Shown one piece after another: positions 4,272 to 49,832 of a stretch of 64,000 nt of DNA. The notes under the pieces are model-generated. The model saw nothing but the letters and a program-made list of their open reading frames with translations, made no database searches and was not told the origin of the DNA. Source of the stretch: an uncultured Candidatus Saccharibacteria bacterium (GTDB taxonomy: Bacteria; Patescibacteriota; Minisyncoccia; Phycocordibacterales; UBA2100); assembly GCA_964437185.1 (NCBI GenBank), contig CAYTFU010000001.1, forward strand, positions 26,304 through 90,303. The letters run 5' to 3'. A program made the translations under genes and the position numbers. How positions within the stretch are numbered: position 1 is the stretch's first letter; the number at the start of each line of letters is the position of its first letter.

Positions 4272-4904
4272 TTAGCCTCGGATTTCAACGAGCGTACCGG
4301 GTTTCCCTGGAATTGCACCTGAGATCAGGAGCGTACTCGTCGTTGCGTCGACTTGGAGGACTTTCAAATTTTTGACCGTCACCCGGTCGCCGCCCATTCG
4401 GCCCGCCATGCGCATACCGGGGACGACTCTGCCGCCCGCGCGACCACCGCCGCCGATTGAGCCCGGACTGCGTTCTCTATTTTTCTGACCGTGCGATCGA
4501 GGACCGCCGCTAAAACCATGACGCTTCACAACGCCCTGAAAACCCTTTCCCTTTGAAATAGCTGAGACGGCGACTACATCGCCAGGCACAAACACCGACA
4601 CATCAATCACATCGCCCCGCTTCGCCTCACCTGAAAGCGGAAATTCCCTTAGGTGTCGAAACATTGAAAGATCTTTGAGGTGGCCCTTTTGTGCGGCATT
4701 CACATTTTTCTCCTTGCGCGACCCAAATCCAATCTGGGCGGCGTCGTACCCATCCTTTTCCTTCCCCTTCACTTGCGTGACTGTGATCGGACCTGCGGTA
4801 ATGATCGTCGCGGCAGAAACGACACCCTTCTCATCGAAGATTTGTGTCATCCGACCCTTTGTTCCGAGCATGAATTTCACCCCGTTAGAAGTTTTGTCTG
4901 TCAT
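4272..4904 (-). CDS. rplC: 50S ribosomal protein L3
   Basis: 210-aa ORF with the L3 N-terminus (MLGTKGRMTQIFDEKGVVSAATII) and a Gly-rich C-terminal loop. It is not preceded by rpsJ as in the canonical order. Confidence 0.9.
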   Translation of the reverse strand: MTDKTSNGVKFMLGTKGRMTQIFDEKGVVSAATIITAGPITVTQVKGKEKDGYDAAQIGFGSRKEKNVNAAQKGHLKDLSMFRHLREFPLSGEAKRGDVIDVSVFVPGDVVAVSAISKGKGFQGVVKRHGFSGGPRSHGQKNRERSPGSIGGGGRAGGRVVPGMRMAGRMGGDRVTVKNLKVLQVDATTSTLLISGAIPGKPGTLVEIRG

Positions 4905-5012
4905 AGTTGTTGTTCACGTGTTCTTCGTATCTTTCCGGCCTGCCCCATTACTTCTAACGGGGTTAATTCGGCATTGTCGTATTTGTTTCGCTGTGCTCAC
5001 AAATACTCTGTG

Positions 5013-5687: not shown

Positions 5688-8540
5688 TTATATCGGCACA
5701 CACGTGCCATTCACCTTCACAAATCCTGCAGCACAGTTTTCTTCAAACGTTGGTAGCACATTGACCGTGGACGATCGCGAGACACTCGAAGGAGTCGAGC
5801 CTGGAAGGCCCTGACAGACGATGGTGAAGACTGTCTGAGACGCGATGGGCGAGCTCGTCTTTGCTCCCGTCGGAGTGCTCCACACACCCGTGGCATTGCT
5901 GCCCGTTCCATCGCCGTTGGTCGCCGTCACGCTGCATGACGAAACATTGCTTGCGGTCCAGAAAACATTTACGGACGTGCCGACGCGTACGAGGAGCGGG
6001 ATAACGCTCCACGAAGTGATGGCGGGAGCGGCGGTACCTATGCATCCACCGACAGAACAACCATTCGTACACATCTGAACGAGCGCACCCGTACAACTAT
6101 TGACGACATTGTTGCCCGAACATACGTTCGTGCATGATAGCGGCGGCACGCAGAGACTCGTACTCGGGTCGAGAGTCCATAGAGTGGGGCAACCGATGAA
6201 CGTGCACACGCCGGGTGATGTTTCAGTATATCCGGAGGGGCATCCCATAAACTGACATGAATTTCCGACAAATATGGATCCGATTGGGCAGTCGATTATC
6301 GGCACACAGACGCCGCCCACAAGGGTGTACCCAGGAAAACACGACGTCGGTACACACTGACCATTCACGTCGCGTGACTCACCTACTGGACATTGTGGAA
6401 CACACCCAGAAAGCGTGCTACCCGGGGTGCAGCCATTGGGAAGACATTCGCCATTGGTCATAAGTGTGGTTCCAGACGGGCATGATCCCTGACACTCTGG
6501 AAGTGTGCTGCCGGGAGAGCAGAATGTGATGCTAGAGGCCACAACGTCTATCCACGCGGAACAGTTATTGTCCTCGTTTGAACCCTCATTGATCGCCCCG
6601 AGGTCGGTCGCCGAACTTTTGTCAGCACATGCGCGCACAGAGTACGAGCCAGCCGTCAAAAAAGTGTGTGTCGCAGTAATCGGACTACTTGCGCCTGCTG
6701 CGAGCGCGGAGAAATGAATCGCTGGCGTAAGATCCACAATGGTACCGGTTCCTCCAGCGCCACCCGCAACCTGGAAGAAGTTGTTGAAGCCAACACCTAT
6801 GGATACAGGACCCCTATTCATTATAGTGGCAGACAAGGTAAACGGAGCATTGATAGTGGCACTGCCGGGACTTGTATTTACCGCGGTAAGATCGGGCAGA
6901 TTGTCGACACAAGAGCCACTCTGAAGCACTTGTCCTGCCGGACAAGCCGTGGGCACACACACACCGTCCAGCAAGACCTGACCGGTCGGACACGACACCA
7001 CAGGCACATTAACATTCACCCACTCACTGCAGTTGTTGTTTTCATACGCACCCTCGTTGATGGTACCGGCGTCTGTGGAGGAGCTCTTGTCGGCGCACGC
7101 TCGCGTGGAGTATGTGCCGCCTGCGGTAAAGGTGTGTGGAAGAGATATATCGTTGCTCGTGCCTCCTCTCAGGGATGAGAGAGAAACAGCGGGAGTGAGA
7201 TCGGTGATGGTACCTCCGCCGTTTGCTTCTGATGCGACCTGGAAGAAGTTGTAGAAGCTGATCCAACTCCCCGTTGAGCCAACGCCCGCGTTGGTAATGA
7301 TGGCGGAGAGCGTGGTCGCAACGTCGACCGTGGCGGACGTCGGGCTCGTGTTGAGTGCGGTGAGGTCGGGGCCGAGGGTGCCGCCAGTGTTGTAGAACGT
7401 GCAGGAGACGATGTTGTCTTGGTTCAACTTCACGCCGCCGATGATGCCGTCGACGATGGTGCCGGTGAGCGTTCCGTTGTCGGTTGCGCCCGTGCAGGAA
7501 GCGCCGAGGATGGTGTGGCCGCTCTGCTGGATTTCTTCAACAGACCATGGGCCGAAACCGCTGACTCTGAAAGGCTCCGTGTAGCCTAGGAAGTCGGTGG
7601 TTTTCGAGACGCCGGCGACCGTGAAATCCCACCCAGAGGCTGGAGCCTGATCGTTGGTTGTGCCCAAGTTGCCATCGACGTCGTAGATCTTCTTGACGGT
7701 GATGGTGCCTCCGCATTGCTCACGTGCGATGCTCGCCAAGTCAGTAGCGAGCGTGCTGAAGTTTGAGGAGAATACGCTGTTGGGACTTGCGATTGCCTGG
7801 AGGTTCGCCGCATCGAGACCGCTGCCGATGCCGATGGCGAGGATGCGTGTTCCCGATGACTTGATGGAGTTGGCGACCGTCACTGCTGCTGAGACTGCGG
7901 TGCTCTCGCTCACGCTCGTGTACCCACCGGTCCCATTATTAATCGTGTTTGGGTTGCCGTCGGAGGCGAATATGACGAGGTTGTTGGCTGAGGGACGGGG
8001 GTCGAAGGTGCTCTGCGAAGCGAGGAGTGCGCCCTGCCAGTTGGTGCTCCCTGATCCGTCGATGGCATCGATCTCGGAATTTACCCGCGAAAGATCATTT
8101 CCGTAGGGTAGGAACTGGAGACGGACTGTTGCTGTGTTATCGAACTTCACGAGCGAAAAGAGCGTGGGGGTTTCTGGGAGGAGTGCGCTTGTGAATCCCT
8201 TCAACGCAGACTTCATCTGAGAGAGTTCCGTGTTATCGATTGATCCCGAGACGTCCATCACGAGCGAGACGTCGAGACCGCAGGTGCCCTCGACAGGCAA
8301 GCTACACTGCCCCGCGTAGTCGGCATCGGATGGGCATGATGCGGGGACGATCTGGAGGCCGGAGTGCGAGGCGTCGGTGAATTGGACTTCGGAGGATGTA
8401 AAAGGCTTCGATGAAACTTGTGTAAAAGCTCCACTCAATATAAGTGCGGCCGCAAGCAAAGCGCCGACCACAAATACACCCTGCCATAGGTCTGCAGGAG
8501 CTACCGAGTCATCCTCACGTCGCCTCTTAGGAGCTACCAT
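5688..8540 (-). CDS. giant membrane-anchored surface protein: vWA domain, CnaB-like segment, two CARDB-like repeats and a Cys-rich C-terminal module
   Basis: 950 aa with an N-terminal transmembrane anchor. vWA MIDAS residues are present (DVSGS...T...ASDGNPN). TITVKKIYDVDGN...GWDFTV resembles a CnaB-type fold. Two tandem CARDB-like domains of about 120 aa (NTSP[TG]SAT...ACADKSS). Then a series of C.PG.TL..G.CVP repeats. Confidence 0.7.
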   Translation of the reverse strand: MVAPKRRREDDSVAPADLWQGVFVVGALLAAALILSGAFTQVSSKPFTSSEVQFTDASHSGLQIVPASCPSDADYAGQCSLPVEGTCGLDVSLVMDVSGSIDNTELSQMKSALKGFTSALLPETPTLFSLVKFDNTATVRLQFLPYGNDLSRVNSEIDAIDGSGSTNWQGALLASQSTFDPRPSANNLVIFASDGNPNTINNGTGGYTSVSESTAVSAAVTVANSIKSSGTRILAIGIGSGLDAANLQAIASPNSVFSSNFSTLATDLASIAREQCGGTITVKKIYDVDGNLGTTNDQAPASGWDFTVAGVSKTTDFLGYTEPFRVSGFGPWSVEEIQQSGHTILGASCTGATDNGTLTGTIVDGIIGGVKLNQDNIVSCTFYNTGGTLGPDLTALNTSPTSATVDVATTLSAIITNAGVGSTGSWISFYNFFQVASEANGGGTITDLTPAVSLSSLRGGTSNDISLPHTFTAGGTYSTRACADKSSSTDAGTINEGAYENNNCSEWVNVNVPVVSCPTGQVLLDGVCVPTACPAGQVLQSGSCVDNLPDLTAVNTSPGSATINAPFTLSATIMNRGPVSIGVGFNNFFQVAGGAGGTGTIVDLTPAIHFSALAAGASSPITATHTFLTAGSYSVRACADKSSATDLGAINEGSNEDNNCSAWIDVVASSITFCSPGSTLPECQGSCPSGTTLMTNGECLPNGCTPGSTLSGCVPQCPVGESRDVNGQCVPTSCFPGYTLVGGVCVPIIDCPIGSIFVGNSCQFMGCPSGYTETSPGVCTFIGCPTLWTLDPSTSLCVPPLSCTNVCSGNNVVNSCTGALVQMCTNGCSVGGCIGTAAPAITSWSVIPLLVRVGTSVNVFWTASNVSSCSVTATNGDGTGSNATGVWSTPTGAKTSSPIASQTVFTIVCQGLPGSTPSSVSRSSTVNVLPTFEENCAAGFVKVNGTCVPI
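6545..7367. repeat. intragenic tandem duplication (two CARDB-like domain copies) inside the 950-aa gene
   Basis: Protein segments aa ~392-513 and ~550-665 are about 60% identical. Off-frame ORFs at 6505..6717 and 7033..7254 share SVAELLSAHAR.EY, which shows the similarity holds at nucleotide level. Confidence 0.6.
7002..8396. repeat. copy A of a ~1.39 kb direct repeat (5' coding region of the vWA adhesin paralogues)
   Basis: aa 49-513 of the 950-aa protein are near-identical to aa 46-509 of the 1186-aa protein. Off-frame ORFs at 7693..8106 vs 27332..27757 and 7033..7254 vs 26621..27034 are almost identical, so nucleotide identity is high. Confidence 0.8.
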
Positions 8541-24358: not shown

Positions 24359-24609
24359 ACCATTTTTCTTTTACTCTTATGTCGCTAGGGACTAGCTAAC
24401 AACACTACTAATATGTGTGTAACGCCAACGCGAGGTGGAGCGAATGCTCCGGTGTCCAGCTGTGATTTTCTGCCTCACGTGCATCTACTTCCGTTCCCTG
24501 AGGAGACGGGCGGGTCGCTACGCCGCGATACAAAATGGAGCAAAAGAATACGCACTGGACGTGCGTTGCACCATAGTATCAAAGTCGTTCGGAGCGTCAA
24601 GTTTTTTGC

Positions 24610-27600
24610 CTATCGCGCTTCTTGGAAAGTCGGCACGATTGACACGGTTGCACTGCCTGTGAATGTTGAGCCGTCCAGTCCTACACATGAAAGATTGAAC
24701 ACCGTTCGCTGATTGATCGCGGGCGTCGCTTGGCCGCCCGCGACGTTTGTCGCTCCCACCCACGATCCAATATCTGGCGAGCTCGTGACGGAACACGATG
24801 AGACGTTTGCCATATTCCAATAGAGTTTTGTGGACACCCCCGGACGCACGATGGAGGGGAACACCTGCAAATTGCCGGTGAGTGTGCTCGATGGAGTGGG
24901 CGTCGGCGGCGGATACAGACACACTGACGATCCAGGAGAGCAAAATCCGGGAGAAACACACGTCGTTACGTTTGAAATGATACAGGACGCGTTCTTATAC
25001 TGAATCGTATTTCCACTACAACTGTAAACTGGCGCGCATGTGACATCGAGAGTCGCTGGGCTAAACGAGCCGATACCAGAGGGGCCGGTAATGCTACCCG
25101 TGTAGGTCGTTGAGTAAGAAGGCGTGACAACTACTGACCCATCGGCGCTGGAGCCTGTAAGAAATAGAGTGGGTCCTGTCGTTGCGGTGCTTGCGTAGAT
25201 TGTCCAGCTTGCGCCCCCAATATTTGTCCACGAAAGTGTGGCGCTGCCTCCTTGAGATATTGTGGACGGGGTAAGGGTGAATGTGCCTGATGGAGGGTTC
25301 ACGGTGAGTATCGCGGGGCAGCTCGTACTAAGAGGCAAAGATGGACTATAGGTAACTACGATAATACCTTGTGCACCTGTACCAGGACTTGTACCCGCGG
25401 CGCCTCCACCTCCCCCATATAAACCTCCGTCCCCAGTACCACCACCGCCGGAGCCACCTCCCGGACCGGCAGTCGCGCCGCCAGCGGTTTGGGTCCAAAT
25501 AGTACCAGCACCTCCATATCCCCCCGCAGCATAACTGCCACTATTGAAACCCCCGCCCCCACCACCACCCACAGTACCATTGGTCGCCACCGACGATCCG
25601 GTCGCTCCGGTACCAGCACCAGCGCCCGATCCGTTTGCACCACCATTCCCTCCATCGGTATCTCCCGCTGCACCTGCATTCCCAGGGCCAGCAAGTGTAG
25701 ATGCGCCACCCCCGCCGCCTTTCGCGTAATCGGTGGTCGCCGAACCATTTCCGCCTACACCACCCACACCACCGGGCCCGGCTGCGCCGCCGCCTCCAGC
25801 GCGCCGCTGCGTACCGCCACCATCCGCTCCACCTTTACCACCTGAATATTTCACCGAACCTATTCCTTGAGCCGACGCGCCTCCGGGGCCGCCACCCGTC
25901 GTGCCCGCTTCACCTCCCTTCGCTAACACACCGTTTGTCGTGCTCGTAGGGGGCGCGCTTACATCTTTGTTGATCCACGAATCGCCGCCTCCGATACCTG
26001 ACGCACCTCCTGACCCAACCTTCACATAAATAGTCTGACCGGGCGAGAGAGATAGATCTGAGTGGGTGATCTTCGAATACGCGCCTCCGCCTCCACCATC
26101 GCTTCCGAATTCACCTCCTCCTCCCCCGCCTATAACCTCAATCTTCCATGGAGGGAAAAAGTCGGCGGGTGCTATCCACGATGTAGCAGTTGTATCGGTG
26201 AGAAAAATAACTTTCTGAGCTCCGCTTGCGGCGGCCTCAACTGTACCAGTGTAGTCGGTGGTCGATACCGGTGACACTGCTACGGATCCTGGAGAGGCGA
26301 CCGATACGTTTCCATGATTCGCGATTGTAAAAGAGGAAGCCCCGGAAGATGTGTAATTAAGGTTGGTCGTCTGTGTTGGATTAATGGGATTCGAATCAAA
26401 AGATATCGAACACGAAAGCACATTGAGGGTCACTGTGCACGTACTATCTCCTCCCGGTCCGCTGACCGATCCAATATATGTCGTGCTCACGCCGGGAACA
26501 ACTGAAGTGGATCCCGAAAGGGACACCGCACCGACACCGCTAATACTCATTGCGGTCGCGTTGGTCGAGGACCACGTCAGCGTGCTCGATTGAGAGCCTA
26601 CTACGGAATCTGGGCTGAGATTGACAGAGCACGAGGGTGGAGGAAAAGGAACATTCACATTCACCCACTCACTACAATTGTTGCCCTCATTCGCGCCCTC
26701 GTTGATGATCCCGGCATCTGTGGAGGAACTCTTGTCGGCACACGCTCGAGTTGAGTATGTGCCCCCTGCGGTAAAGGTGTGTGGGAGCGATATGGTATTG
26801 CTCGTGCCTCCTCTCAGGGATGAGAGAGAAACAGCGGGAGTGAGATCAGTAATGGTACCTCCGCCGTTTGCTGCGGACGCGACTTGGAAGAAGTTGGGGA
26901 AGCTGATCCCCGTTGAGCCAACGCCCGCGTTGGTAATGATGGCGGTGAGCGTGGTCGCAACGTCGATCGTGGCGGACGTCGGGCTCGTATTGAGCGCGGT
27001 GAGGTCGGGGCCGAGGGTGCCGCCGGTGTTGTAGAACACGCAGGAGACGATGTTGTCTTGGTTCAACTGAATGCCACCGATAATGCCATTGACGATACTA
27101 CCGGAGAGCGTGCCGTTGTCGGTTGCGCCCGTACATGAGGCGCCGAGGATGGTGTGGCCGCTCTGCTGAATTTCTTCAACGGACCATGGGCCGAAGCCGC
27201 TCACCTTGAAAGGCTCGGTGTAGCCCAGGAAGTCGGTGGTTTGCGAGACGCCCGCGACCGTGAAGTCCCATCCAGAGGCTGGAGCTTGGTCGTTGGTTGT
27301 GCCTAGATTGCCATCGACGTCGTAGATCTTCTTGACGGTGATGGTGCCTCCACACTGCTCGCGTGCGATGCTCGCTAAGTCAGTAGCGAGCGTGCTGAAG
27401 TTCGACAAGAACACGCTGTTGGGACTCGCGATTGCTTGGAGGTTCGCCGCATCGAGACCGTTGCCGATGCCGATGGCGAGGATGCGTGTTCCCGATGACT
27501 TGATGGAGTTGGCGACCGTCACGGCTGCTGAGACTGCGGTGCTTTCGCTCACGCTCGTGTATCCACCGGTCGCATTATTAATCGTGTTTGGGTTGCCGTC

Positions 27601-28170
27601 GGAGGCGAATATCACGAGGTTGTTGGCAGCGGGGCGAGGGTCGAAGGTGCTCTGTGAAGCGAGGAGTGCGCCCTGCCAGTTGGTGCTCCCTGATCCGTCG
27701 ATGGATGAAATGGTCGAATTTACCGATGTGAGATTGTTTCCATTGGGAAAGAACTGAGAACGCACGACCGCGAGATTGTCAAAGCTAACGACCGAAAACA
27801 GCGTGGGGGTTTCTGGGAGGAGTGCGCTTACAAATGATTGCAGAGCAGTCTTCATCTGAGAGAGTTCCGTGTTATCGATTGATCCCGAGACGTCCATCAC
27901 GAGCGAGACGTCGAGACCACAGGTGCCATCGACAGGGAGGCTGCACTGTCCGGCGTAGTCTGGAGACGAAGGGCACGACGCGGGGATGATCTGGAGGCCG
28001 GAGTGCGAGGCGTCGGTAAATTTCACCTCCGAAGAAACAAATCCCTGTTGGCCTGAATAATTCGCCAGTACAGAAAGTATGCCGAGCACACAAACGAATA
28101 CGATAAGCGCGGCTCGAAATCCATCGAGGTCATACGAACGACAGAGGGCCATGAGGCGTTTTATATTCAT
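24610..28170 (-). CDS. giant surface protein paralogue (vWA, CnaB-like and CARDB-like domains), with a ~330-aa glycine-rich low-complexity region and Ig-like C-terminal domains
   Basis: 1186 aa. aa 46-509 are near-identical to the 950-aa protein. A unique middle region (aa ~690-1020) is about 50% Gly (GGGGGGEFGSDGGGGGAYSKI ... GIIVVTYSP) without G-X-Y periodicity. Its start lies 10 nt after the stop of the upstream gene 28181..28657. Confidence 0.7.
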   Translation of the reverse strand: MNIKRLMALCRSYDLDGFRAALIVFVCVLGILSVLANYSGQQGFVSSEVKFTDASHSGLQIIPASCPSSPDYAGQCSLPVDGTCGLDVSLVMDVSGSIDNTELSQMKTALQSFVSALLPETPTLFSVVSFDNLAVVRSQFFPNGNNLTSVNSTISSIDGSGSTNWQGALLASQSTFDPRPAANNLVIFASDGNPNTINNATGGYTSVSESTAVSAAVTVANSIKSSGTRILAIGIGNGLDAANLQAIASPNSVFLSNFSTLATDLASIAREQCGGTITVKKIYDVDGNLGTTNDQAPASGWDFTVAGVSQTTDFLGYTEPFKVSGFGPWSVEEIQQSGHTILGASCTGATDNGTLSGSIVNGIIGGIQLNQDNIVSCVFYNTGGTLGPDLTALNTSPTSATIDVATTLTAIITNAGVGSTGISFPNFFQVASAANGGGTITDLTPAVSLSSLRGGTSNTISLPHTFTAGGTYSTRACADKSSSTDAGIINEGANEGNNCSEWVNVNVPFPPPSCSVNLSPDSVVGSQSSTLTWSSTNATAMSISGVGAVSLSGSTSVVPGVSTTYIGSVSGPGGDSTCTVTLNVLSCSISFDSNPINPTQTTNLNYTSSGASSFTIANHGNVSVASPGSVAVSPVSTTDYTGTVEAAASGAQKVIFLTDTTATSWIAPADFFPPWKIEVIGGGGGGEFGSDGGGGGAYSKITHSDLSLSPGQTIYVKVGSGGASGIGGGDSWINKDVSAPPTSTTNGVLAKGGEAGTTGGGPGGASAQGIGSVKYSGGKGGADGGGTQRRAGGGGAAGPGGVGGVGGNGSATTDYAKGGGGGASTLAGPGNAGAAGDTDGGNGGANGSGAGAGTGATGSSVATNGTVGGGGGGGFNSGSYAAGGYGGAGTIWTQTAGGATAGPGGGSGGGGTGDGGLYGGGGGAAGTSPGTGAQGIIVVTYSPSLPLSTSCPAILTVNPPSGTFTLTPSTISQGGSATLSWTNIGGASWTIYASTATTGPTLFLTGSSADGSVVVTPSYSTTYTGSITGPSGIGSFSPATLDVTCAPVYSCSGNTIQYKNASCIISNVTTCVSPGFCSPGSSVCLYPPPTPTPSSTLTGNLQVFPSIVRPGVSTKLYWNMANVSSCSVTSSPDIGSWVGATNVAGGQATPAINQRTVFNLSCVGLDGSTFTGSATVSIVPTFQEAR
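26644..28035. repeat. copy B of the ~1.39 kb direct repeat (see 7002..8396)
   Basis: Same evidence as copy A. The copies are about 19.6 kb apart in direct orientation and bracket rpsJ, tuf and about 15 other genes. Confidence 0.8.
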
Positions 28171-28180
28171 GCGCGTCTCT

Positions 28181-28657
28181 TCAATTTTTAGTGACAGTCA
28201 CCGTACCTGATTTACCCGCATCAAGCTTGTTAGAAAATCCCCATGTACCGGGTAGATCAAAAGTGAATTCATAATACTCACCGGGAAACAAAGCCTCGCA
28301 GGAATCAAACGCACTTGATCCGCACCCCGTAATTGACCCTGGGTAGATGGGGCCTGCTGTGGGATCCGAGGCGACCCACAAATCGCCGGAAGACCCATTG
28401 TAAAATCGCACATTGTCACCCTTTTTTATCGTAAACGTGCGCGGATCAAACCCCCCATCCGAATACGAAATAAGCATTTGAAATCCTTTTGGATTTTGCG
28501 ATGCGGTCGCCTCTTCAGGAGTCATTGAACGCCGTACGGCTGGCTTATCTGCCGTGACCGACGTACGTGACATAGCAAAAAACGCTGCGACCGCCGAAAG
28601 CACGAAAAGTGCGGCGACCGCAAGGACGAGCCAGAGGATTGGTTTCCCAATATTCAC
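28181..28657 (-). CDS. small membrane-anchored exported protein, co-transcribed upstream of the 1186-aa adhesin gene
   Basis: N-terminal TM/signal (ILWLVLAVAALFVLSAVAAFFA). The beta-rich domain (TFTIKKGDNVRFYNGSSGDLWVASDP ... TVTVTK) is cupredoxin/Ig-like in pattern but lacks clear metal ligands. Confidence 0.4.
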   Translation of the reverse strand: MNIGKPILWLVLAVAALFVLSAVAAFFAMSRTSVTADKPAVRRSMTPEEATASQNPKGFQMLISYSDGGFDPRTFTIKKGDNVRFYNGSSGDLWVASDPTAGPIYPGSITGCGSSAFDSCEALFPGEYYEFTFDLPGTWGFSNKLDAGKSGTVTVTKN

Positions 28658-28741
28658 ACATTCAGTATACGCTGTATATATTCACACTCGTGCCCTATCC
28701 ACAGTCAGTTCTTCTACCAACCCATATGGTACTCTTTCGAC

Positions 28742-29272
28742 ATGAACGAAGGAGGCAAAAAAACAACGAACAATATCATTGACCTGAATGACGCGCGCCG
28801 AAACCGCGGACTCCCCCCCCTTCTCAAGGTGGCTGTGGCGAACGAAGCGCCACTACCACCTGATCCAATTGAACATCTCCTCAACGGAGATTTTGTTGCA
28901 GCACGCGAACAGATTGAGCGCGGGGCACAAGGTCACGAAAACTCATTATTCAACTATTACTTCGGCCTTTGGCACGATTATAAAAGATTCCAAGAAATGG
29001 ATATTGAGCTTCCGAGTATTGAGAGAGCAAACCCGCATGTCAAACTCTTTTTACAGTCAGTGCCTGGATCTCTCGAATTTTTCAATCAAATTTTTGCAAT
29101 AATGCGAGAATCGGGATACACGACTGAAGACCGCGTACGAATCGAGGCGTACTTCGGACGCATCTCGGCAGCCGAGAAAGCTCAGAATCCTTCATGGTAC
29201 GATCCTGTCTTTAACGAGCGCATGGGTAACATGCGCCTCGCGCTTCAAAATATCTTCCCTACGCAGCCTTAG
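28742..29272 (+). CDS. hypothetical protein
   Basis: 176-aa ORF with no recognisable motif; the composition looks like a real protein. Confidence 0.35.
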   Translation: MNEGGKKTTNNIIDLNDARRNRGLPPLLKVAVANEAPLPPDPIEHLLNGDFVAAREQIERGAQGHENSLFNYYFGLWHDYKRFQEMDIELPSIERANPHVKLFLQSVPGSLEFFNQIFAIMRESGYTTEDRVRIEAYFGRISAAEKAQNPSWYDPVFNERMGNMRLALQNIFPTQP

Positions 29273-29287
29273 AATCTGACCACGATT

Positions 29288-29812
29288 TCATTGCCGGTCC
29301 GCGAACGTCGTTGAAGGCTTCCGTCGCCTTTTTATATATTCAAGCGCCATATATTTTAGACTCATGTTGAGACTCTCTGCGTCGTTAGGATCGTAGCCAC
29401 GCAACTTTCGCAATATATCCATCGTACTCATTCTCGCATACGGATTTTCTTGGGGTTCAGCGACTCCACCAGCGATAGCTTTCGCAAGTGGATCGATCTG
29501 CTTTTCAAGGTACAACTCCGCGAGAGCGAGGAGTCGTGGCGCATCTTCTGGATTCGCAGAGGGAGCGACTTCCTTATTGGCCATGCCAGCAAGTGACTCA
29601 CGCACTTCGTCGGGCTGCTCCTGTAGCTTCAATCGCTCCGCCCGCACCGCCCGAAAACCTTCATCGGTATCGAGTAGGTGATGGTGCGTCGCAAGAAGGT
29701 TGCCGGCCAAATCATCCATCTGAAACTCAAGCCGCCCGACACCGCTACCTCCAACGTTTTCATGGCCGGCGAGCCGCACCGTTGGTCTCAAGTTCTCGGG
29801 ACCTTGTCTCAT
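29288..29812 (-). CDS. hypothetical protein
   Basis: 174-aa ORF with no recognisable motif. Confidence 0.3.
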   Translation of the reverse strand: MRQGPENLRPTVRLAGHENVGGSGVGRLEFQMDDLAGNLLATHHHLLDTDEGFRAVRAERLKLQEQPDEVRESLAGMANKEVAPSANPEDAPRLLALAELYLEKQIDPLAKAIAGGVAEPQENPYARMSTMDILRKLRGYDPNDAESLNMSLKYMALEYIKRRRKPSTTFADRQ

Positions 29813-29848
29813 ATCATTGACAACGACTTGTACTCAAATGGGGCGCTA

Positions 29849-30652
29849 TTAGCGTGTGAAAACAAACGTGGCGCTTGAAGCGGTAAGCGATGTGACAGCG
29901 ATGGTGAGTTGGCGCGAGTGGTCAGTGGTTACCTTGCTCCCCTTCTGAATCGTCACAACCTGCGATTGGAGGCCGCCGCTTACTTTGCCTGTAACGCGCA
30001 GCTTCGCGCCGCCCGAAACAGACATCAGCTCAATCCGATACGCACCGTTGGCGATCGTACTCTGCGCTTCGATGAGACCTTGGCGGATGTAGAGCGATTC
30101 GGTGACGGTGCTCGTCGCGAGCGAGAAGCCCTTGAGGGGATACTCCACTCCGTTGGCAATGAGCCCCTTCACACACGGACGCAACATTTGATCTTGCGTC
30201 GCGGTGTCGAGCACGCCTGTCTGCGCAAGCCCCATCTCGCGTTGATATCGTTTGAGGTTTGCTTCAGTGGTTGCATCAAACGTGCCTGTGATAGACGACG
30301 CGGGAAGGCTGTAGGTTCCCATAAAGAATTTTTGCAGTGTGGCGACACCGCCAACAAAACCCGATGCGGTATCACTATCTCCGAGTTTTGCGGTCGCGGT
30401 AAATTGCGGACAAAAGACACTGCTCGATGTGACAGGTCCTGCCGGCGCTTTCGGAGCAGCAGGCTTAGAGGATGATTTCGCGGGAGTTGGAGCAGGCGCG
30501 GGTTCGCCCGTGGCCGGTATGGTGGTGCTCGCATTTTCTCCCACATCAATGCCGACATCAGCAGGGAGTAAACGGCTAGAAGATGAAAAATACCACACTG
30601 TTAAGGCGATGCTCGCGGCAAGGGCGAGCCCGAGAATAGATTGCGTACTCAT
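29849..30652 (-). CDS. membrane-anchored protein with peptidoglycan-binding (PG_binding_1-like) domain
   Basis: N-terminal TM helix (ILGLALAASIALTVWYF), a Pro/Ala linker, then GFVGGVATLQKFFMGTYSLPASSITGTFDATTEANLKRYQREMGLAQTGVLDTATQDQM, which fits a PGBD fold. Confidence 0.5.
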   Translation of the reverse strand: MSTQSILGLALAASIALTVWYFSSSSRLLPADVGIDVGENASTTIPATGEPAPAPTPAKSSSKPAAPKAPAGPVTSSSVFCPQFTATAKLGDSDTASGFVGGVATLQKFFMGTYSLPASSITGTFDATTEANLKRYQREMGLAQTGVLDTATQDQMLRPCVKGLIANGVEYPLKGFSLATSTVTESLYIRQGLIEAQSTIANGAYRIELMSVSGGAKLRVTGKVSGGLQSQVVTIQKGSKVTTDHSRQLTIAVTSLTASSATFVFTR

Positions 30653-30666
30653 GCCGCAAGTGTAGC

Positions 30667-30726
30667 CTACTTTCGAGCGGCAATCACGGTGTCAGCCACT
30701 GCTTTGGGTACAATCGCCCCGTAGCA
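30667..30726 (-). other. diverged duplicate of the fusA 3' end (orphan fragment encoding ..YGAIVPKAVADTVIAARK*)
   Basis: The reverse-strand frame reads ICYGAIVPKAVADTVIAARK-stop. The real fusA ends FSHYAIVPKAVADTVIASRK-stop about 95 nt upstream on the same strand. Nucleotide identity is about 70% with near-identical protein. Confidence 0.7.
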
Positions 30727-30761
30727 GATGCTGCGCATCGCTACGGGGTAAACTCTGTGAC

Positions 30762-32903
30762 TTACTTACGAGAGGCGATTACAGTATCAGCCACGGCTTT
30801 TGGAACGATGGCGTAATGACTGAATTCGAGGTTGGGAACGCCCCGGCCTTCGGTGGCGGATCGGAGCTGGGTCGTAAAGCCGAAGAGTTCTGAAAGGGGC
30901 ACCTTGGCGGTAATGACGCGCGCCTGCCCGCGCTCCCCCATCGCTTCGATAGAACCACGCTTTGAATTGACCATACCTGTCACATCGCCCATGAATTTTT
31001 CTGGCACGACCACTTCGAGCTTCATGATCGGCTCAAGAATGACGGGCTTTGCTTTCGCCATTGCTTCTTGCATAGCATTGATCGCGGCGAGCTTGAAAGC
31101 GATTTCGGATGAGTCGACGTCGTGAGCAGAGCCATCGTAGAGCTCGACGGAAATGTCGACCACCGGAAATCCTGCCTGAATGCCGCGCTCCATTGCTTCG
31201 ATGAGACCCTTTTTGACCGGCTGGATGTACTCCTGCGGAATTACGCCTCCCTTGATGTTATTGATGAACTCGAAGTGATCTTCGCGTTCGACATTATTCT
31301 TGATTTTCTTCCCTTCTTCCACTGGCTCAAGTGGCTTCACGCGGATTTTTACGTGGCCGTATTGGCCGCGACCACCCGTCTGCTTGATGTGTTTGTACTC
31401 AACATCGGCAGTGCCCTGAATCGTCTCGCGATATGCGACTTGCGGCTTACCTGTCGTCGCCTGCACGCCAAATTCTCGCTTCATACGATCAACGATGATT
31501 TCGAGGTGGAGCTCGCCCATGCCGGATACGATGGTCTCCATCGTCTCGGGATCAGACTTGATGCGGAAGGTTGGGTCCTCGTCCGAGAGCTTGGAGAGTG
31601 CCATACCCATCTTCTCTTGGTCTGCCTTGGTGTTCGGCTCAATGCGCATCGAAACGACCGGCTCCGGAAAGACGATGGACTCGAGCGCGATCGGATGATC
31701 GGCGTCGCAGAGAGTGTGGCCGATTTTCACTTCTTTCATACCCACAGCAGCAGCAATCTCACCCGCGTACACTGTCTTCACGTCTTCGCGCTTGTCGGCC
31801 TGAAGGCGCACGATTCGGCCTACACGTTCTTTCTTGTTGTTGGCAGAATCGTACACAGTCTCACCCGCAGTAAAAGAACCCGAGTACACGCGGAAGAATG
31901 AGAGCTGCCCGACGAACGGATCCGTTTGGATTTTGAAAACGAGTGCCGAAAACGGCGCTTCGTCCGAAGCGGGGCGCGTATCTTCAGCCCCCGTGTCTGT
32001 GTTCGTCCCCTTGGCAGCTGGCATGTCGAGCGGCGATGGAAGATAATCGACAACAGCGTCGAGGACGAGTTGCACTCCCTTATTCTTGAGCGATGAGCCC
32101 GTAAGGACGGGGAAGATTTTGTTGGCAATAACGCCCTTGCGGAGGGTCTTCTGGAGCACCTCAACAGAAATCTCTTTACCATCGAGAAATTCGGCCATTA
32201 CTTCGTCATCGAGCTCAACAATTCGCTCTACGAGCTCTGTGTGATACTTTTTGGCTTCAGCCATCATGTTTTCGGGAATGTCGAACGAAGAGACATTTTT
32301 GCCCATCTCTCCTTCAAACTTGTATGCCTTCATGTGCAGGAGGTCGATGATTCCAGAGAATTGATCTTCGAGACCGATTGGTATCTGGAGACGCACGGCC
32401 TTCGTAGACAAACGATCGAGGATGGACGCGTAGGACTTTTCAAACGACGCACCGGTGCGATCGAGCTTGTTGATGTAGCAGATACGTGGCACGTTGGCCT
32501 CTTCAGCGTAGCGCCAGTTGGTCTCAGACTGTGGTTCGACGCCCGCAACGCCGTCAAAGACGACGACCGCGCCATCGAGCACACGCATGGAGCGCTTCAC
32601 TTCGGAGGTGAAGTCGATGTGTCCGGGGGTGTCGATAATATTGAAACGAATTTTCTGTGACGTATCAGCGCCCATGTAGGTAGGGTTCCAGAAACACGTG
32701 ATCGCCGCAGCGGTGATGGTGATGCCGCGTTCGCGCTCCTGTTCCATCCAGTCGGTCACCGTGTTGCCCTCGTGCACTTCGCCGATTTTGTGCGATTCGC
32801 CGGTGTAGTAGAGGATGCGCTCAGACGTGGTGGTCTTCCCCGCGTCGACGTGGGCCACAATCCCGAAATTGCGAACTTTCTCCAGAGGGTAATCTCGACT
32901 CAT
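30762..32903 (-). CDS. fusA: elongation factor G
   Basis: 713 aa; AHVDAGKTTTSERILYYTG, DTPGHIDF and the complete EF-G domain series. Confidence 0.95.
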   Translation of the reverse strand: MSRDYPLEKVRNFGIVAHVDAGKTTTSERILYYTGESHKIGEVHEGNTVTDWMEQERERGITITAAAITCFWNPTYMGADTSQKIRFNIIDTPGHIDFTSEVKRSMRVLDGAVVVFDGVAGVEPQSETNWRYAEEANVPRICYINKLDRTGASFEKSYASILDRLSTKAVRLQIPIGLEDQFSGIIDLLHMKAYKFEGEMGKNVSSFDIPENMMAEAKKYHTELVERIVELDDEVMAEFLDGKEISVEVLQKTLRKGVIANKIFPVLTGSSLKNKGVQLVLDAVVDYLPSPLDMPAAKGTNTDTGAEDTRPASDEAPFSALVFKIQTDPFVGQLSFFRVYSGSFTAGETVYDSANNKKERVGRIVRLQADKREDVKTVYAGEIAAAVGMKEVKIGHTLCDADHPIALESIVFPEPVVSMRIEPNTKADQEKMGMALSKLSDEDPTFRIKSDPETMETIVSGMGELHLEIIVDRMKREFGVQATTGKPQVAYRETIQGTADVEYKHIKQTGGRGQYGHVKIRVKPLEPVEEGKKIKNNVEREDHFEFINNIKGGVIPQEYIQPVKKGLIEAMERGIQAGFPVVDISVELYDGSAHDVDSSEIAFKLAAINAMQEAMAKAKPVILEPIMKLEVVVPEKFMGDVTGMVNSKRGSIEAMGERGQARVITAKVPLSELFGFTTQLRSATEGRGVPNLEFSHYAIVPKAVADTVIASRK

Positions 32904-32943: not shown

Positions 32944-33276
32944 ATGAAAACGCCCGAAGGCGTGCTGGTAATGTACCTTGGATTTCCAGAAATGCCAAGC
33001 GGTTGCGCCAAGGAGTCAACCATATATACTGACACTATGAAGCGGCGGCAATATACAATCAAAACTCGATTCGGCGCTCACGTCTGTGTGTTTGAAAAGG
33101 ACACGAAAGGATACCTCGTGGTCGCCAAAGATATTAAGGGCGTCGTTACCTGGGGCAAGAACATCGCTCACGCGAAAGCAATGGCCAAAGAAGCACTCGA
33201 GCTGATGATCGAAACAACCGCCATCGAATCCCCGTTATCTGTTGCAGTGAAGAACAACAAATATCAGATGGCATGA
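32944..33276 (+). CDS. hicB: HicB-family antitoxin
   Basis: YTIKTRFGAHVCVFEKDTKGYLVVAKDIKGVVTWGKNIAHAKAMAKEALELMIE matches the HicB (UPF0150) fold pattern. A possible start is MKRRQY at 33036. It overlaps hicA by ATGA. Confidence 0.65.
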   Translation: MKTPEGVLVMYLGFPEMPSGCAKESTIYTDTMKRRQYTIKTRFGAHVCVFEKDTKGYLVVAKDIKGVVTWGKNIAHAKAMAKEALELMIETTAIESPLSVAVKNNKYQMA

Positions 33277-33503
33277 GTGTCATTCCGATAATCGGAGTTC
33301 GAGTAATGCTCCGTGTCCTCCAGAAATCTGGCTTTTATGTGGTGCGACAAACTGGGAGTCATTTGAGGCTCGTAAATCCGTCAATCAATAGATCCGTCAC
33401 CCTTCCCATGCACGCGGGCGACTTGTCGCGAAAGATGACTGCAGCCATCCTGAAGCAGGCCGGGATATCGACTCTTAACTTTCTTGAGTTACTCGGCAAG
33501 TAG
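33273..33503 (+). CDS. hicA: HicA-family mRNA interferase toxin
   Basis: VLQKSGFYVVRQTGSHLRLVNPSINRSVTLPMHAGDLSRKMTAAILKQAGI matches the HicA/YcfA consensus (K.GF...RQ.GSH....H...). Confidence 0.7.
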   Translation: MSVIPIIGVRVMLRVLQKSGFYVVRQTGSHLRLVNPSINRSVTLPMHAGDLSRKMTAAILKQAGISTLNFLELLGK

Positions 33504-33651: not shown

Positions 33652-34152
33652 TTACTGTAATTTTGTGATGCTCACGACTGTCTCCTCTACGCAACCGCCG
33701 GCCGGATAGCTCCCAGCTATATACTCATCGAGTACTATTCGCACTGTATCTCCATAAGAAACATCAGCATCTTTAACTTCCGAATTGCCGATACAAATTC
33801 CATTTACCACCCATTGAGGATCCGAATGCGGGAGCCGCGTGCTGCTTTTGGCTATTTCGAGCATAGGTCCACTTATTTCTCCACTAAGAAACTTTCCCTC
33901 AAGCGCCGCGTGACCCTTGAAGGTAATTTTGAAGTTTTCTTCACGCGGAAGATCTACCTTCGGTTCGAAAGGTTCGACTTTTACTACCTCAAATTCCCCC
34001 ACCAAATCCCCCACTTGAATTTTTTCGACATCGATATAAGAGAAGTATTGCGGTGAATGAGGTGGAGATTGGTTTATCCTGTTCTGAAAAACGAAGTATC
34101 CACCTACCGCAGCGAGAACAATCACGCCAGCAAAGATGATCCGCCTATTCAT
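33652..34152 (-). CDS. hypothetical membrane-anchored protein
   Basis: 166 aa with an N-terminal TM helix (IIFAGVIVLAAVGGYFVF) and a soluble domain with no known motif. It is inserted between rpsG and fusA together with hicBA. Confidence 0.4.
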   Translation of the reverse strand: MNRRIIFAGVIVLAAVGGYFVFQNRINQSPPHSPQYFSYIDVEKIQVGDLVGEFEVVKVEPFEPKVDLPREENFKITFKGHAALEGKFLSGEISGPMLEIAKSSTRLPHSDPQWVVNGICIGNSEVKDADVSYGDTVRIVLDEYIAGSYPAGGCVEETVVSITKLQ

Positions 34153-34233
34153 ACAAAAATATTACCACGCGAAGTGGGCGAAGGCTTTGTTGGCTCCCCC
34201 CTTGCTAAAGCTTCGGAGGGCAAGTCGGCCTAG

Positions 34234-34695
34234 CTACCAGGCGAAGTGCGCAAACGCTTTATTCGCTTCCGCCATTCTGTGAGTGGTTTCTTTCTTGGTC
34301 GCAGCAGCACCTTCGCCCTTGTGAGCAGCTCGGAGTTCTGCAAGAAGACTCTCATGCATTGGCTTGCCCTTCGTACCCTCAGCAGCCTCTACGATCCAGC
34401 GCATGCCGAGCGAGAGCTTGCGATTTGGATTGACCTCGCGGGGAACCTGGTAGTTGGCTCCACCGACGCGGCGAGAACGGACCTCCACAGATGGAGACGC
34501 CTTCTCAAGCGCTTCTTCGAGGAACATGACGGGGTCGCCATCTTTCTTGAGCTCTTCCATCACCTTGTACACGATCTTGCGTGCAGTGTCTTTCTTACCA
34601 CGCTCCATCACGTAGTTGATGAGCTTTGCAACCTTAAAAGATCCGTACACTTCGTCCGGCTGAGGCTGCATTCTGTTTTTTACTGGGCGGCGCAT
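34234..34695 (-). CDS. rpsG: 30S ribosomal protein S7
   Basis: 153 aa; PDEVYGSFKVAKLINYVMERGKK ... VEVRSRRVGGANYQVP, classic S7. Confidence 0.9.
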   Translation of the reverse strand: MRRPVKNRMQPQPDEVYGSFKVAKLINYVMERGKKDTARKIVYKVMEELKKDGDPVMFLEEALEKASPSVEVRSRRVGGANYQVPREVNPNRKLSLGMRWIVEAAEGTKGKPMHESLLAELRAAHKGEGAAATKKETTHRMAEANKAFAHFAW

Positions 34696-48212: not shown

Positions 48213-49832
48213 TTAATTGACTGGCGTGGGCAAGGCCCCCACCTGCACCGTCGCCGAAGTTGTAGCCGTCTTGCCGGCAGAATCACGCACGACGATCCTC
48301 ACCGTATACGTGCCCGCGCTCGCATACGAGTGCGTGAAGGTGGTCGTCTGAACGACCGCAGAGCCCGGATAAATTCCTTCAAGCAAACTGCTGCGCGCAT
48401 ACCACTCGTCTCCCCATTGAATCGAATATGTGAGCGTCCCATTTTCCGGATCAGATGCATTGATGCTCCACGTCCCCGAAGAGTTCACGGCGAGCGCCGT
48501 AGGGCCGGAGAATGAGGAGATGGTCGGTGGGAGATTGCCTTCGTTCTCGCTAAAGTACGCGGTGCAGTATGCGCGTACACCCGTGTCATTGAGGCAGGCG
48601 CGGAGCGTACACATTGCGGAGCTACTCGCAGATGCGCGGCTGCATGTATTGCATCCGTCGTACCACGCTTTGCAACGCGGATCGGACGAAGGGTCATTGG
48701 TCGTCGGACGGCACTCGCCCGCGTAGAGGAAGGTCGCGCCATCAGCCTCCATGCCGCAACGATTACTGTATGTCTGCTGCACAGGATTGCACGGAGTCGT
48801 TATGCATTGCACCTGCTTCGAACCGCACACTGGATTGTAATCCATCGTACAAATTTGAGGACCAACACGGATTTGCGCGCTGCCGACTACGCGCGATCCA
48901 GAATCACCCGGCGGAGCGAAGTAACCGTAATGGACGAGTGAAGCGGTGTACGCTCCATTCGCCGTGTACGTGTGCGAAATCACGTGAGGGCCAGCACATT
49001 GCGGCGCGGCGCCCGTGCACGAGAGTACCTGCTCAGCTCCGTCCCCGAAAGTAACCTTGTAGCTGCCCGCATCCGCAACCATTTGCGGATTCATGATGGA
49101 CACATTTGCCCTGAATGAAACTACGAGCGGGGCAGCGCCAGACATCGGAATCGCATTGAGTACAGCCGGCGGCGGCACGACGCCACCACACAATCTCACG
49201 AGACGCTCGCGAGAGACGGGGCCAAAGATTCCTGCGGGGGTAACGCCTTGCTCCGTCTGCCATCTACGTACCGCTTCAGAAGTAACCATGCCGAAGTAAC
49301 CGGTCGGATCTGTCGGAAGCATTCCTCGGTCGCGCAAGAACTCTTGCAACGCGCGTACGTCATCGCCCTGCGCGCCGACTGAGAGACTGCGAGCGAGGAG
49401 GCTGCAGACGCGGTGTGTCAACGTGGCTTGCGGAAGTGGCGTGGGTCGTGATGATGTTGCTGTTGGAGGAACTGGCGGCACAACGCCACCACACAATCTC
49501 ACGAGACGCTCGCGAGAGACGGGGCCAAAGATTCCTGCTGGCGTAACGCCTTGCTCCGTCTGCCATCTGCGTACGGCCTCAGAAGTAACCGCGCCGAAGT
49601 AGCCTGTTGGATCTGTCGGAAGCATTCCTCGGTCGCGCAGGAATTCCTGAAGTGCGCGTACGTCATCACCCTGCGCGCCGACTGAGAGACTGCGGGCGAG
49701 GAGGCCGCAAACGCGAGGTATAGAAATGGGAGGACTTGAGGTGCTGGACGATTGTGCTGACGCGAGCGATGGGAATACTCCTCCTACGACGAGCACGGCG
49801 ACCACGATGCCAGTAAATGTATATTTTTTCAT
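48213..49832 (-). CDS. secreted protein with two tandem near-identical peptidoglycan-binding domains, a Kazal-like Cys module and C-terminal Ig-like domain
   Basis: Signal peptide. Two ~80-aa repeats (RVC.LLARSLSVGAQGDDVRALQEFLRDRGML...VRLCGGVVPP) differ at 2 residues. The Kazal-like pattern is CTMDYNPVCGSKQV...TYSNRCGMEADGATFLYAGEC. Confidence 0.6.
   Translation of the reverse strand: MKKYTFTGIVVAVLVVGGVFPSLASAQSSSTSSPPISIPRVCGLLARSLSVGAQGDDVRALQEFLRDRGMLPTDPTGYFGAVTSEAVRRWQTEQGVTPAGIFGPVSRERLVRLCGGVVPPVPPTATSSRPTPLPQATLTHRVCSLLARSLSVGAQGDDVRALQEFLRDRGMLPTDPTGYFGMVTSEAVRRWQTEQGVTPAGIFGPVSRERLVRLCGGVVPPPAVLNAIPMSGAAPLVVSFRANVSIMNPQMVADAGSYKVTFGDGAEQVLSCTGAAPQCAGPHVISHTYTANGAYTASLVHYGYFAPPGDSGSRVVGSAQIRVGPQICTMDYNPVCGSKQVQCITTPCNPVQQTYSNRCGMEADGATFLYAGECRPTTNDPSSDPRCKAWYDGCNTCSRASASSSAMCTLRACLNDTGVRAYCTAYFSENEGNLPPTISSFSGPTALAVNSSGTWSINASDPENGTLTYSIQWGDEWYARSSLLEGIYPGSAVVQTTTFTHSYASAGTYTVRIVVRDSAGKTATTSATVQVGALPTPVN
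49167..49715. repeat. tandem direct repeat, 2 x ~243 bp at 306-bp period (PGBD units) inside gene 48213..49832
   Basis: 49195-49260 is nearly identical to 49497-49562 at nucleotide level. Off-frame ORFs at 49033..49263 and 49360..49566 share MADGARRY..RNLWPRLSRASREIVWWR. Confidence 0.7.

Follow-up and report, generated by a model that had tools for sequence, protein, structure and literature searches.

Why should an intact gene for a core translation factor be followed directly by a second copy of its own 3′ end? The question is raised by the gene for elongation factor G (EF-G), fusA, in a 64,000 nucleotide (nt) stretch of DNA from an uncultured Candidatus Saccharibacteria bacterium (GenBank assembly GCA_964437185.1, contig CAYTFU010000001.1, positions 26,304 to 90,303 of the forward strand). 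This whole stretch is referred to here as the window. The answer we lean toward, with confidence a little better than even, is that the downstream copy, termed the remnant, is a non-functional scar of a displaced fusA end; the end of a related lineage's gene would have been recombined in, with a hairpin at the non-homologous joint.

The last 16 codons of fusA (copy 1) start with GCC ATC GTT, end with CGT AAG TAA and translate to AIVPKAVADTVIASRK followed by TAA. The remnant (copy 2) starts with GCG ATT GTA, ends with CGA AAG TAG and gives AIVPKAVADTVIAARK followed by TAG. In a pairwise comparison 12 of 51 nt differ, an identity of 76%; an initial annotation of the locus had put the identity at about 70%, which is too low. 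The same residue or stop is found in 16 of 17 codons. Third codon positions hold 11 of the 12 differences (ten synonymous changes in sense codons plus the TAA/TAG pair), and the sole non-synonymous difference is S/A. The description of a second fusA end that is near-identical in protein with mostly synonymous differences is thus borne out. If changes fell at random over the codon positions, at least 10 of 11 sense-codon differences at position 3 would have a probability of ~1.3e-4 by our own calculation. The two copies are spaced 95 nt start-to-start, and the remnant stop is likewise 95 nt past the fusA stop. The remnant itself begins 44 nt past that stop, so the 95 nt first given as the distance of the duplicate from the fusA stop holds for the spacing and for the two stops and not for the start of the remnant.

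Tails of 3255 open reading frames (ORFs) from the window and 80 related loci were scanned for a copy no more than 5 kilobases (kb) downstream with at least 9 of 12 residues matching. Only 12 tails have such a copy and eight of these are fusA. The fusA-end duplicate is real and far beyond chance, as so few tails in the scan have a downstream copy. A chance likeness of a handful of residues, which the initial annotation had named as the finding that would undo its claim, is excluded by the same scan.

The window belongs to a Kaiserbacteria-like Parcubacteria genome of metagenomic origin. Wider comparisons were with 160 related Parcubacteria loci (80 from genomes and 80 from metagenomes), picked by fusA similarity only; L-numbers are locus labels. 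The sequence comes from a metagenome assembly, in which the fusA ends of two strains could have been strung together by the assembler. This is extremely improbable: an independent ENA assembly (L001) displays the identical arrangement, and other, unrelated projects and lineages show the same architecture, a specific hairpin being present at the joint each time.

The type of change shows that the copies had separate histories as working gene ends, in different but related lineages, before a recent event placed them side by side, because the changes are overwhelmingly synonymous and drift in place would alter all codon positions. Pooling of 16 copy pairs from different loci gives 131 codons with synonymous and 12 with non-synonymous differences. 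The tails in use in related species diverge equally: those of L010 and L016 are identical at 14 of 14 amino acids (aa) and synonymously different at 13 of 14 codons, and other identical 14-residue tails have 9–13 synonymously different codons (e.g. L026 and L038, L024 and L029). The earlier suggestion that a fusA end of another genome was brought in by recombination is supported, the divergence being of the coding type that arises in separate lineages before the ends are joined. Local tandem duplication of the fusA end, for instance by slippage at the hairpin described below, with later divergence in place, would account for the tandem orientation and the short 95-nt period, and long nearly identical stretches do occur in L070, L003 and L128. 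A dead copy, however, would gain changes at all codon positions, insertions or deletions and stops, whereas here third positions account for 11 of 12 changes and the frame is intact. In L031, moreover, two hairpins are 96% identical while the tails adjoining them differ at 25–30% of sites. Tandem duplication is therefore regarded as very improbable. The variable region and template repeat pair of a diversity-generating retroelement was also considered and rejected; A is found at only 3 of 12 differing sites in each copy, and neighbouring ORFs show no reverse transcriptase domain.

Between the fusA stop and the remnant lies a perfect hairpin. This hairpin and a duplicated rpsG tail described further below are both additional to the initial annotation. 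The arms and loop read CCCCGTAGCGATGC-GCA-GCATCtGCTACGGGG, and the final G is the first base of the remnant. The predicted RNA fold has a free energy of −24.6 kcal/mol (z = −5.35), and none of 200 shuffled sequences is as stable. The hairpin matches the covariance model of a hairpin family (see below) with 39.6 bits and an E-value of 1.4e-6; no Rfam family matches it. It is the only copy of the family within the window, found at fusA, and a dispersed repeat of this genome was rejected on that ground. An intrinsic terminator was rejected as well: no terminator-like site is found in 30300–31100, there is no T-tract, and the hairpin is followed by CGATTGTACC.

The second copy might instead be functional, as a small ORF or through frameshifting, readthrough or bypassing, with its amino acids under selection. 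The reading frame of the remnant is open back to the fusA stop and holds an in-frame ATG (MRSICYGAIVPK...), and the rpsG remnant lies in frame with rpsG behind a single TAG. Against this, the fusA remnant has no Shine-Dalgarno sequence, its sole in-frame ATG sits inside the −24.6 kcal/mol stem-loop, and most remnants in related loci have no start codon. The copy offsets are unsystematic (95, 95, 104, 70, 114, 219 and 3223 nt) and some remnants are decayed, e.g. the third remnant of L171 (r3) with an internal stop. A function for the second copy is hence hardly credible.

In short-range duplicates the joint is always at the base of a long GC-clamped hairpin. Seven such joint hairpins form one family: that of the window, two in L031, those at both fusA ends of L039 in mirror orientation, that of L175–L177 and that of L090. 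The family consensus is GCCCCGTAGC...GGTACYGGGG, or in fuller form (C-Y-Y-G)CCCCGTAGC, a variable inner stem with a GNA or UNCG loop, and GGTACYGGGG. In the inner stem, paired positions covary and four pair types are seen. The outer stem is constant and includes a G-G mismatch and a pyrimidine bulge. The covariance model was built from these seven hairpins, its matches reach E-values of 1e-6 to 1e-10, and further family members were found with it. One of them, in L135, abuts a 9-codon duplicate of the rplB start. A weak match in L062 lies inside an ORF and is probably false. The orientation is the same in every case, at 3′ and 5′ gene ends alike: the GCCCCGTAGC arm is on the side of the working gene and the G-run touches the remnant, which means that the hairpin invariably forms the 3′ end of the imported strand. 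The reading is G|T at nine of 11 joints, and one Val codon, in the N-V-A motif of fusA, holds five joints. Over all joints the reading is G|T, G|C or A|C, with one to three bases that appear to be shared, as judged without the donor sequence.

The hairpin is mobile on its own, since both filled and empty 33-nt sites occur. L171 displays an in-frame 33-nt hairpin insertion inside a dead fusA remnant. In two intergenic units of the IMG/VR contig L188, a 33-nt hairpin is present in one arm of a repeated palindrome and missing from the equivalent arm of the sister copy. L016 shows a simple hairpin insertion 14 nt past the rpsJ stop that is not found in the relatives compared (L019, L012); the spacing from stop to hairpin is similar in the window fusA (13 nt). 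The copy number is low, with one in the window and one or two per related locus. L178–L193, IMG/VR contigs classed as viral, contain the family too (e.g. L188 3489–3523 and 8836–8872); its flanks there are conserved (ctctgCCTGCCCCGTAGC...GGGGtgagag), and both filled and empty sites are seen. Genes for methyltransferases and a glycosyltransferase are present on L188, for which the viral class may be wrong.

As a separate observation, a 13-nt inverted repeat (CCCCGTTAGAAGT ... ACTTCTAACGGGG) encloses ~58 nt at window positions ~4878–4964, just upstream of the likely rplC start. It is found again in L039 (7496–7612) and L054 (15475–15579), and its CCCCGTTAGAA motif also forms the fusA-joint hairpins of L010 and L171. 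It could be an S10-operon leader structure or a related palindromic element.

Duplicates of a fusA end are found in 11 of the 160 related loci. Copies of the 3′ end occur in the genome loci L003, L010, L031 (two extra copies), L039, L041 and L070 and in the metagenome loci L096/L143, L127 and L128; copies of the 5′ end occur in L039, L086 and L091. Other genes affected are rpsG in the window, rpmB in L090 and rplB in L135, the latter two at gene starts. All-against-all peptide scans of these loci gave no comparable events for tuf, rpsL or other genes. Remnants range from 10 to 74 codons. Two further candidates for 5′ events were rejected, namely fusA proteins of 695 aa as 5′-truncated genes, which are due to mis-called GTG starts, and longer fusA proteins as in-frame 5′ remnants. 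Outside the translation genes, a gene-end duplicate was observed in L031 (4940–6320), where the tail of a 103-aa ORF (…AILMFLRTLE*) is repeated ~1 kb downstream and the two copies flank a metallo-beta-lactamase-fold-like gene.

The duplicated rpsG tail of the window indicates which of two copies is the older. The rpsG remnant differs from the working tail by no non-synonymous and seven synonymous or stop differences. The remnant is identical at 31–32 of 33 nt to the working rpsG tails of the relatives L083 and L086, and for this reason it is the resident copy; the working rpsG end carries private changes, e.g. AGA for CGC and TAG for TAA. Other loci show the same polarity. In L010 the gene body has a G+C content at third codon positions of 0.73, which is common to the remnant, the remnant matches 30 of 33 nt of the L008 working tail, and the working tail is rich in A+T at third positions. 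The 5′ remnants of L086 and L090 retain the upstream flank or promoter seen before intact genes of relatives. In the first remnant of L172 (r1) the left 95 nt are identical to the resident gene and the right part alone is diverged. By these comparisons, wherever a decision is possible, the remnant represents the resident copy, and the newcomer is the working end together with what follows it as far as the joint. By analogy, the working fusA tail of the window would be imported and its remnant older.

Foreign sequence also reaches further upstream than the duplicated part, ~110 against 30 nt in the window rpsG and by ~8 extra codons in L010. This bears on another explanation, that a discrete mobile unit, in which hairpin and spacer are combined with a short replacement gene end, is moved by a Y1/HUH transposase (one-ended or guided transposition) to places near translation gene ends, the carried gene-end copy rendering the insertion harmless. 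The conserved hairpin with its fixed polarity, the recurrent G^T target with five junctions in one fusA codon, and the mobility of the hairpin alone would all suit such a unit. Related loci do contain Y1 transposase genes (PF01797, Y1_Tnp, IS200-like) no more than 10 kb from fusA (L003 21290–21574, L006 1764–2162, L023 3832–4227, L030 14766–15179 and L041 17308–17709). Those of L006 and L023 are flanked by GC-clamped hairpins in the style of REP/RAYT elements (repetitive extragenic palindromes with their associated tyrosine transposases), with hairpin sequences that differ from the fusA-joint family, and no Y1 transposase of the related loci could be tied to that family. Foreign sequence in excess of the duplicated part fits a homologous crossover and speaks against a fixed left end. 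In tail type, each replacement end resembles its own host rather than one element lineage, no second hairpin or left-end motif is present, and the window has no transposase gene. We consider a self-contained end-replacing element unlikely, and less likely than a crossover combined with a joint at the hairpin.

The course of events under displacement of the resident end would be as follows. DNA of a related Parcubacteria lineage would replace the resident fusA 3′ end. The incoming DNA would carry the last part of the donor fusA, its stop, a 3′ flank of 13 nt and a stable hairpin. An ordinary homologous crossover within conserved coding sequence would resolve the gene side. On the far side homology would be lacking, as the sequence past fusA is hypervariable in the clade, and the incoming 3′ end, at the G-run of the hairpin, would be joined non-homologously into the resident fusA 16 codons before its stop, so that the last 16 resident codons would be left just outside the new end. 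With the joint downstream of the crossover, a short and fully diverged remnant would result, as in the window; with the joint upstream of it, part of the resident gene would be duplicated identically (L003, L070, L128, L172). The hairpin may define the end of the imported segment either by protecting the 3′ end from trimming or by being joined by a hairpin-specific (Y1/HUH-type) transposase. The route by which the DNA entered and the enzyme that made the joint we infer. The comEC gene is present in the same gene neighbourhoods as these loci. For Patescibacteria, competence and frequent transfer of translation genes have been reported (PMC12455944), and transformation with DNA that is heterologous in part is known to result in homology-facilitated illegitimate recombination (HFIR; PMC6382021).

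Several points weigh against this course of events. The longer remnants of L003, L070, L128 and L172 show no hairpin at the joint, so a hairpin is not required for all such events. A passive block to exonuclease does not explain why one hairpin family is conserved across distant lineages and genes; that conservation points to a specific enzyme, and the window contains no Y1 transposase gene. Breakpoint mapping in fusA against relatives at 91–93% aa identity is uninformative. The nearest relatives are only ~80% identical in nucleotides and the left crossover in the window fusA is for this reason not placeable; the age of the two window copies therefore rests on the analogy with the other loci and on a short similarity in the 14-nt flank past the remnant (Table 1). 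A degenerate-codon scan of Joint Genome Institute metagenomes for the window fusA tail gave no match to a donor or an empty allele.

Table 1. Features around fusA and rpsG in the window, with the evidence for each
Feature	Position	Strand	Evidence and remarks
fusA (EF-G), 713 aa, intact	30762..32903	minus	All five EF-G Pfam domains; identical protein on three public contigs
Working fusA tail (copy 1), last 16 codons + TAA	30762..30812	minus	Probable distal part of an imported patch, by analogy with window rpsG, L010, L086 and L090
Spacer GTCACAGAGTTTA, 13 nt, fusA stop to hairpin	30749..30761	minus	Sequence
Perfect hairpin, 32 nt, CCCCGTAGC GATGC-GCA-GCATC t GCTACGGGG	30717..30748	minus	Fold and covariance model; member of a conserved family
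Remnant (copy 2), 16 codons + TAG	30667..30717	minus	Putative displaced older fusA end; −1 frame relative to fusA
14-nt flank GCTACACTTGCGGC, remnant stop to next ATG	30653..30666	minus	Resembles first bases of the L087 fusA-tuf spacer (GCCTTAGGCTTGACGGCG); short, weak evidence
Accessory block	24610..30652	minus	Pfam; missing from L087–L089
PG_binding_1 protein	29849–30652	minus	Pfam
Two ORFs without domains	29288–29812, 28181–28657	minus	Pfam scan
VWA protein, 1186 aa	24610–28170	minus	Pfam
Conserved tuf-upstream region (CTTGACG ... TTTGATACTAT ...)	24359..24609	minus	Homologous to the L087 fusA-tuf spacer by alignment; starts directly past the VWA stop
HicB-like/HicA toxin-antitoxin pair	32944..33503	plus	PF07927 1.4e-15; PF15919 3.7e-5 (24.3 bits, under the 27-bit curated cutoff)
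166-aa ORF without domains	33652–34152	minus	Between rpsG and fusA
rpsG remnant ANKAFAHFAW-TAA	34162..34194	minus	Resident copy; ATG of the 166-aa ORF 9 nt later
39-nt spacer past rpsG	34195..34233	minus	Weak hairpin (CCCTCC ... GGGGGG), G-run against the rpsG remnant; no stabler than shuffles, z = 0.59
Working rpsG tail ANKAFAHFAW-TAG	34234..34266	minus	End of an imported patch of ~110 nt; window-specific differences clustered in the last ~110 nt

The remnant is followed 14 nt past its stop by the ATG of a PG_binding_1 protein, which opens a block of ~6 kb that reaches to tuf. In L087–L089, with 93% EF-G aa identity, the order is rpsL-rpsG-fusA-(327 nt)-tuf. The 6.4-kb block of the window is, from this comparison, accessory and inserted within an L087-type fusA-tuf spacer region, because spacer homology resumes past the VWA stop and the 14-nt flank past the remnant resembles the spacer start. 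The distance from fusA to tuf varies from ~0.1 to 7 kb in the clade, and that from rpsG to fusA is variable too. In L086, PG_binding and PKD genes fill more than 10 kb past fusA, and homologues of the block genes are found downstream of fusA in L002 and L003. The motif TAG-GC-(4–6 nt)-CTTG(A)CG is seen at both ends of the block (24595–24612 and 30653–30669), where the tuf-side copy runs into the conserved tuf-upstream region, and may be a trace of the block insertion.

The initial annotation had offered an integrating element with an att-like site as one source of the duplicate, and had taken the duplicate as direct evidence that the 6.4-kb block was acquired. In that explanation a site-specific island with an integrase and attL/attR sites would target the fusA 3′ end and carry its own copy, and the remnant would be the att site of the block. 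The window block is accessory, a target 3′ end does appear to have been carried in with displacement of the old end, and in relatives cargo arrays of Fic, Phd-ParE and PG_binding genes are bounded by fusA 3′ remnants like tandem islands at tRNA genes. On the other hand, Pfam shows no recombinase domain in any ORF of the fusA-tuf block or the rpsG-fusA insert (only PG_binding_1, VWA and HicA/HicB), and no integrase, transposase or recombinase is found there or among the listed genes of the arrays. Remnant lengths of 10 to 74 codons leave no fixed core. The far end of the block, where an integrase and a cognate repeat were proposed, yielded neither: no fusA-end repeat was found near tuf, and a third fusA tail at the VWA C-terminus was rejected (p > 0.07 in nucleotide alignment, outside the top 12 of 311 ORF ends). 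The window copies flank only 44 nt, not the block. An island of this kind is quite improbable. The accessory nature of the block follows from comparison with relatives only, and the remnant would be a former working end; that it is direct evidence of acquisition is not borne out. The piece inserted beside the remnant is the 96-nt patch on the fusA side, consisting of working tail, stop, spacer and hairpin. By analogy with relatives in which fusA tails and cargo form units, the remnant may have arrived together with the block.

Such units were seen when the last 70 EF-G residues were used as a query, which matched numerous short ORFs in the annotation of long Kaiserbacteria contigs; these ORFs are 3′ fragments of fusA. 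L171 (GCA_016217965, 3900–10250) displays an array of fusA, Fic, remnant, PG_binding, remnant, PG_binding, remnant, Phd-ParE, remnant and so on; L172–L174 read fusA, Phd-ParE, remnant, Fic, remnant, and L175–L177 are similar. Each unit (Fic, Phd/YefM-ParE or PG_binding_1) is bounded by a fusA 3′ fragment of 14–74 codons, and several of these fragments are publicly annotated as 'elongation factor G' or hypothetical. The newest unit lies nearest fusA. In three different genomes a fusA tail precedes the Phd-ParE unit with a homologous promoter, and the cargo therefore appears to travel behind its own tail copy. No integrase or recombinase is found among the listed genes of the L171–L177 arrays.

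On the other side of fusA, the toxin-antitoxin pair and the 166-aa ORF of the window occupy the space between rpsG and fusA, genes which are only 9 nt apart in L083 and L087; the toxin-antitoxin pair lies within the str operon. Elsewhere in the window the peptide-duplicate scan gave repeats spaced 303 nt with ~92% nucleotide identity at ~49171–49650 (plus strand), and repeats spaced 468 nt at ~6600–7230 within a 950-aa ORF (5688–8540). Both are probably internal domain repeats.

A broader proposition, which we regard as possible and advance only tentatively, is that Parcubacteria have an integrase-free remodelling of core translation gene ends. A mobile hairpin (33–45 nt, GCCCCGTAGC...GGTACYGGGG) would settle a few bases outside a conserved gene and spread between lineages, dragging the gene end with it by a crossover and a joint at the hairpin end. 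The orphaned ends at fusA would then act as portable homology or landing pads, from which arrays of toxin-antitoxin, Fic and cell-wall-binding cassettes arise. If displacement of resident ends is the right reading, core translation genes of ultra-small Patescibacteria, commonly taken as stable markers of vertical descent, repeatedly receive foreign ends, and from the scars one can date and orient single transfers, a rare opportunity with housekeeping genes. The fusA-tuf spacer would be a hotspot of gene accretion without an integrase, and a small hairpin would be a candidate boundary-setting or self-propagating element. Mosaic ends may affect fusA, rpsG, rplB and rpmB trees and marker-gene binning in the phylum, and dozens of short public ORFs labelled 'EF-G' or 'hypothetical' are orphaned gene ends.

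The components of this proposition are known already: HFIR, gene-end duplication by integrating elements, and REP-like hairpins; the mechanism that combines them is partly inferred. The literature searched holds no description of a conserved mobile hairpin that marks replaced ends of fusA, rpsG, rpmB and rplB, nor of fusA-tail remnants separating integrase-free cargo arrays, nor of a fixed hairpin orientation rule. A search for fusA as an island integration site gave nothing relevant.

In HFIR (de Vries & Wackernagel 2002; Prudhomme 2002; Meier & Wackernagel 2003, summarised in PMC6382021), as in the events described here, one end is anchored by homology, the other is joined at a microhomology of a few bases, and foreign sequence is added beside the anchor. 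Foreign sequence on the gene side is seen for the window rpsG, L010 and L172; for the window fusA the relatives are only ~80% nucleotide-identical. The non-homologous joints show microhomology of a few bases, the shared bases being presumed. Unlike HFIR, the same genes and even the same codon recur here in many lineages, the non-homologous end is a conserved mobile hairpin, part of the resident gene is kept as a duplicate, and the process is known from sequence alone.

Integrative islands and integrative and conjugative elements target the 3′ ends of tRNA, tmRNA or protein genes (e.g. rplL, guaA) and supply a replacement end. As in the loci described here, the target gene stays intact through the carried copy, the displaced end forms a direct repeat, and tandem cargo arrays are possible. 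The present loci differ in that no integrase is found and a fixed core is missing; in place of an identical att core, their copies show divergence at synonymous sites. Integron cassette arrays resemble the Kaiserbacteria arrays in their promoter-poor cargo, toxin-antitoxin pairs included, lined up beside a fixed site with a repeated boundary element. Here, by contrast, the boundary is a piece of fusA coding sequence and not attC, there is no IntI gene, and the hairpin does not have the R″/R′ core arrangement.

The joint hairpins share with REP/RAYT and IS200/IS605-type palindromes (PMC3333891, PMC3479197, PMC5027513) a short palindrome whose imperfections, a mismatch and a bulge, are conserved, behaviour as a mobile unit, suitability for single-strand DNA and the presence of Y1 genes in the clade. 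Unlike these, the window hairpin is a single copy per 64 kb, such hairpins lie at joints of gene-end replacement, and no transposase is linked to them. The hairpin may resemble the IS608 end hairpin, the sequence of which was not found in the literature searched.

The last comparison is with mobile ORF elements of fungal mitochondria (Allomyces atp6), which integrate close to the 3′ terminus of a gene and supply a foreign copy of its C-terminus, with the native end left downstream. Those elements carry a homing endonuclease gene, whereas the insert here can be as small as 96 nt with a hairpin only. In both systems a working gene with a foreign end is followed by its orphaned native end, and the divergence between the two ends is mostly synonymous.

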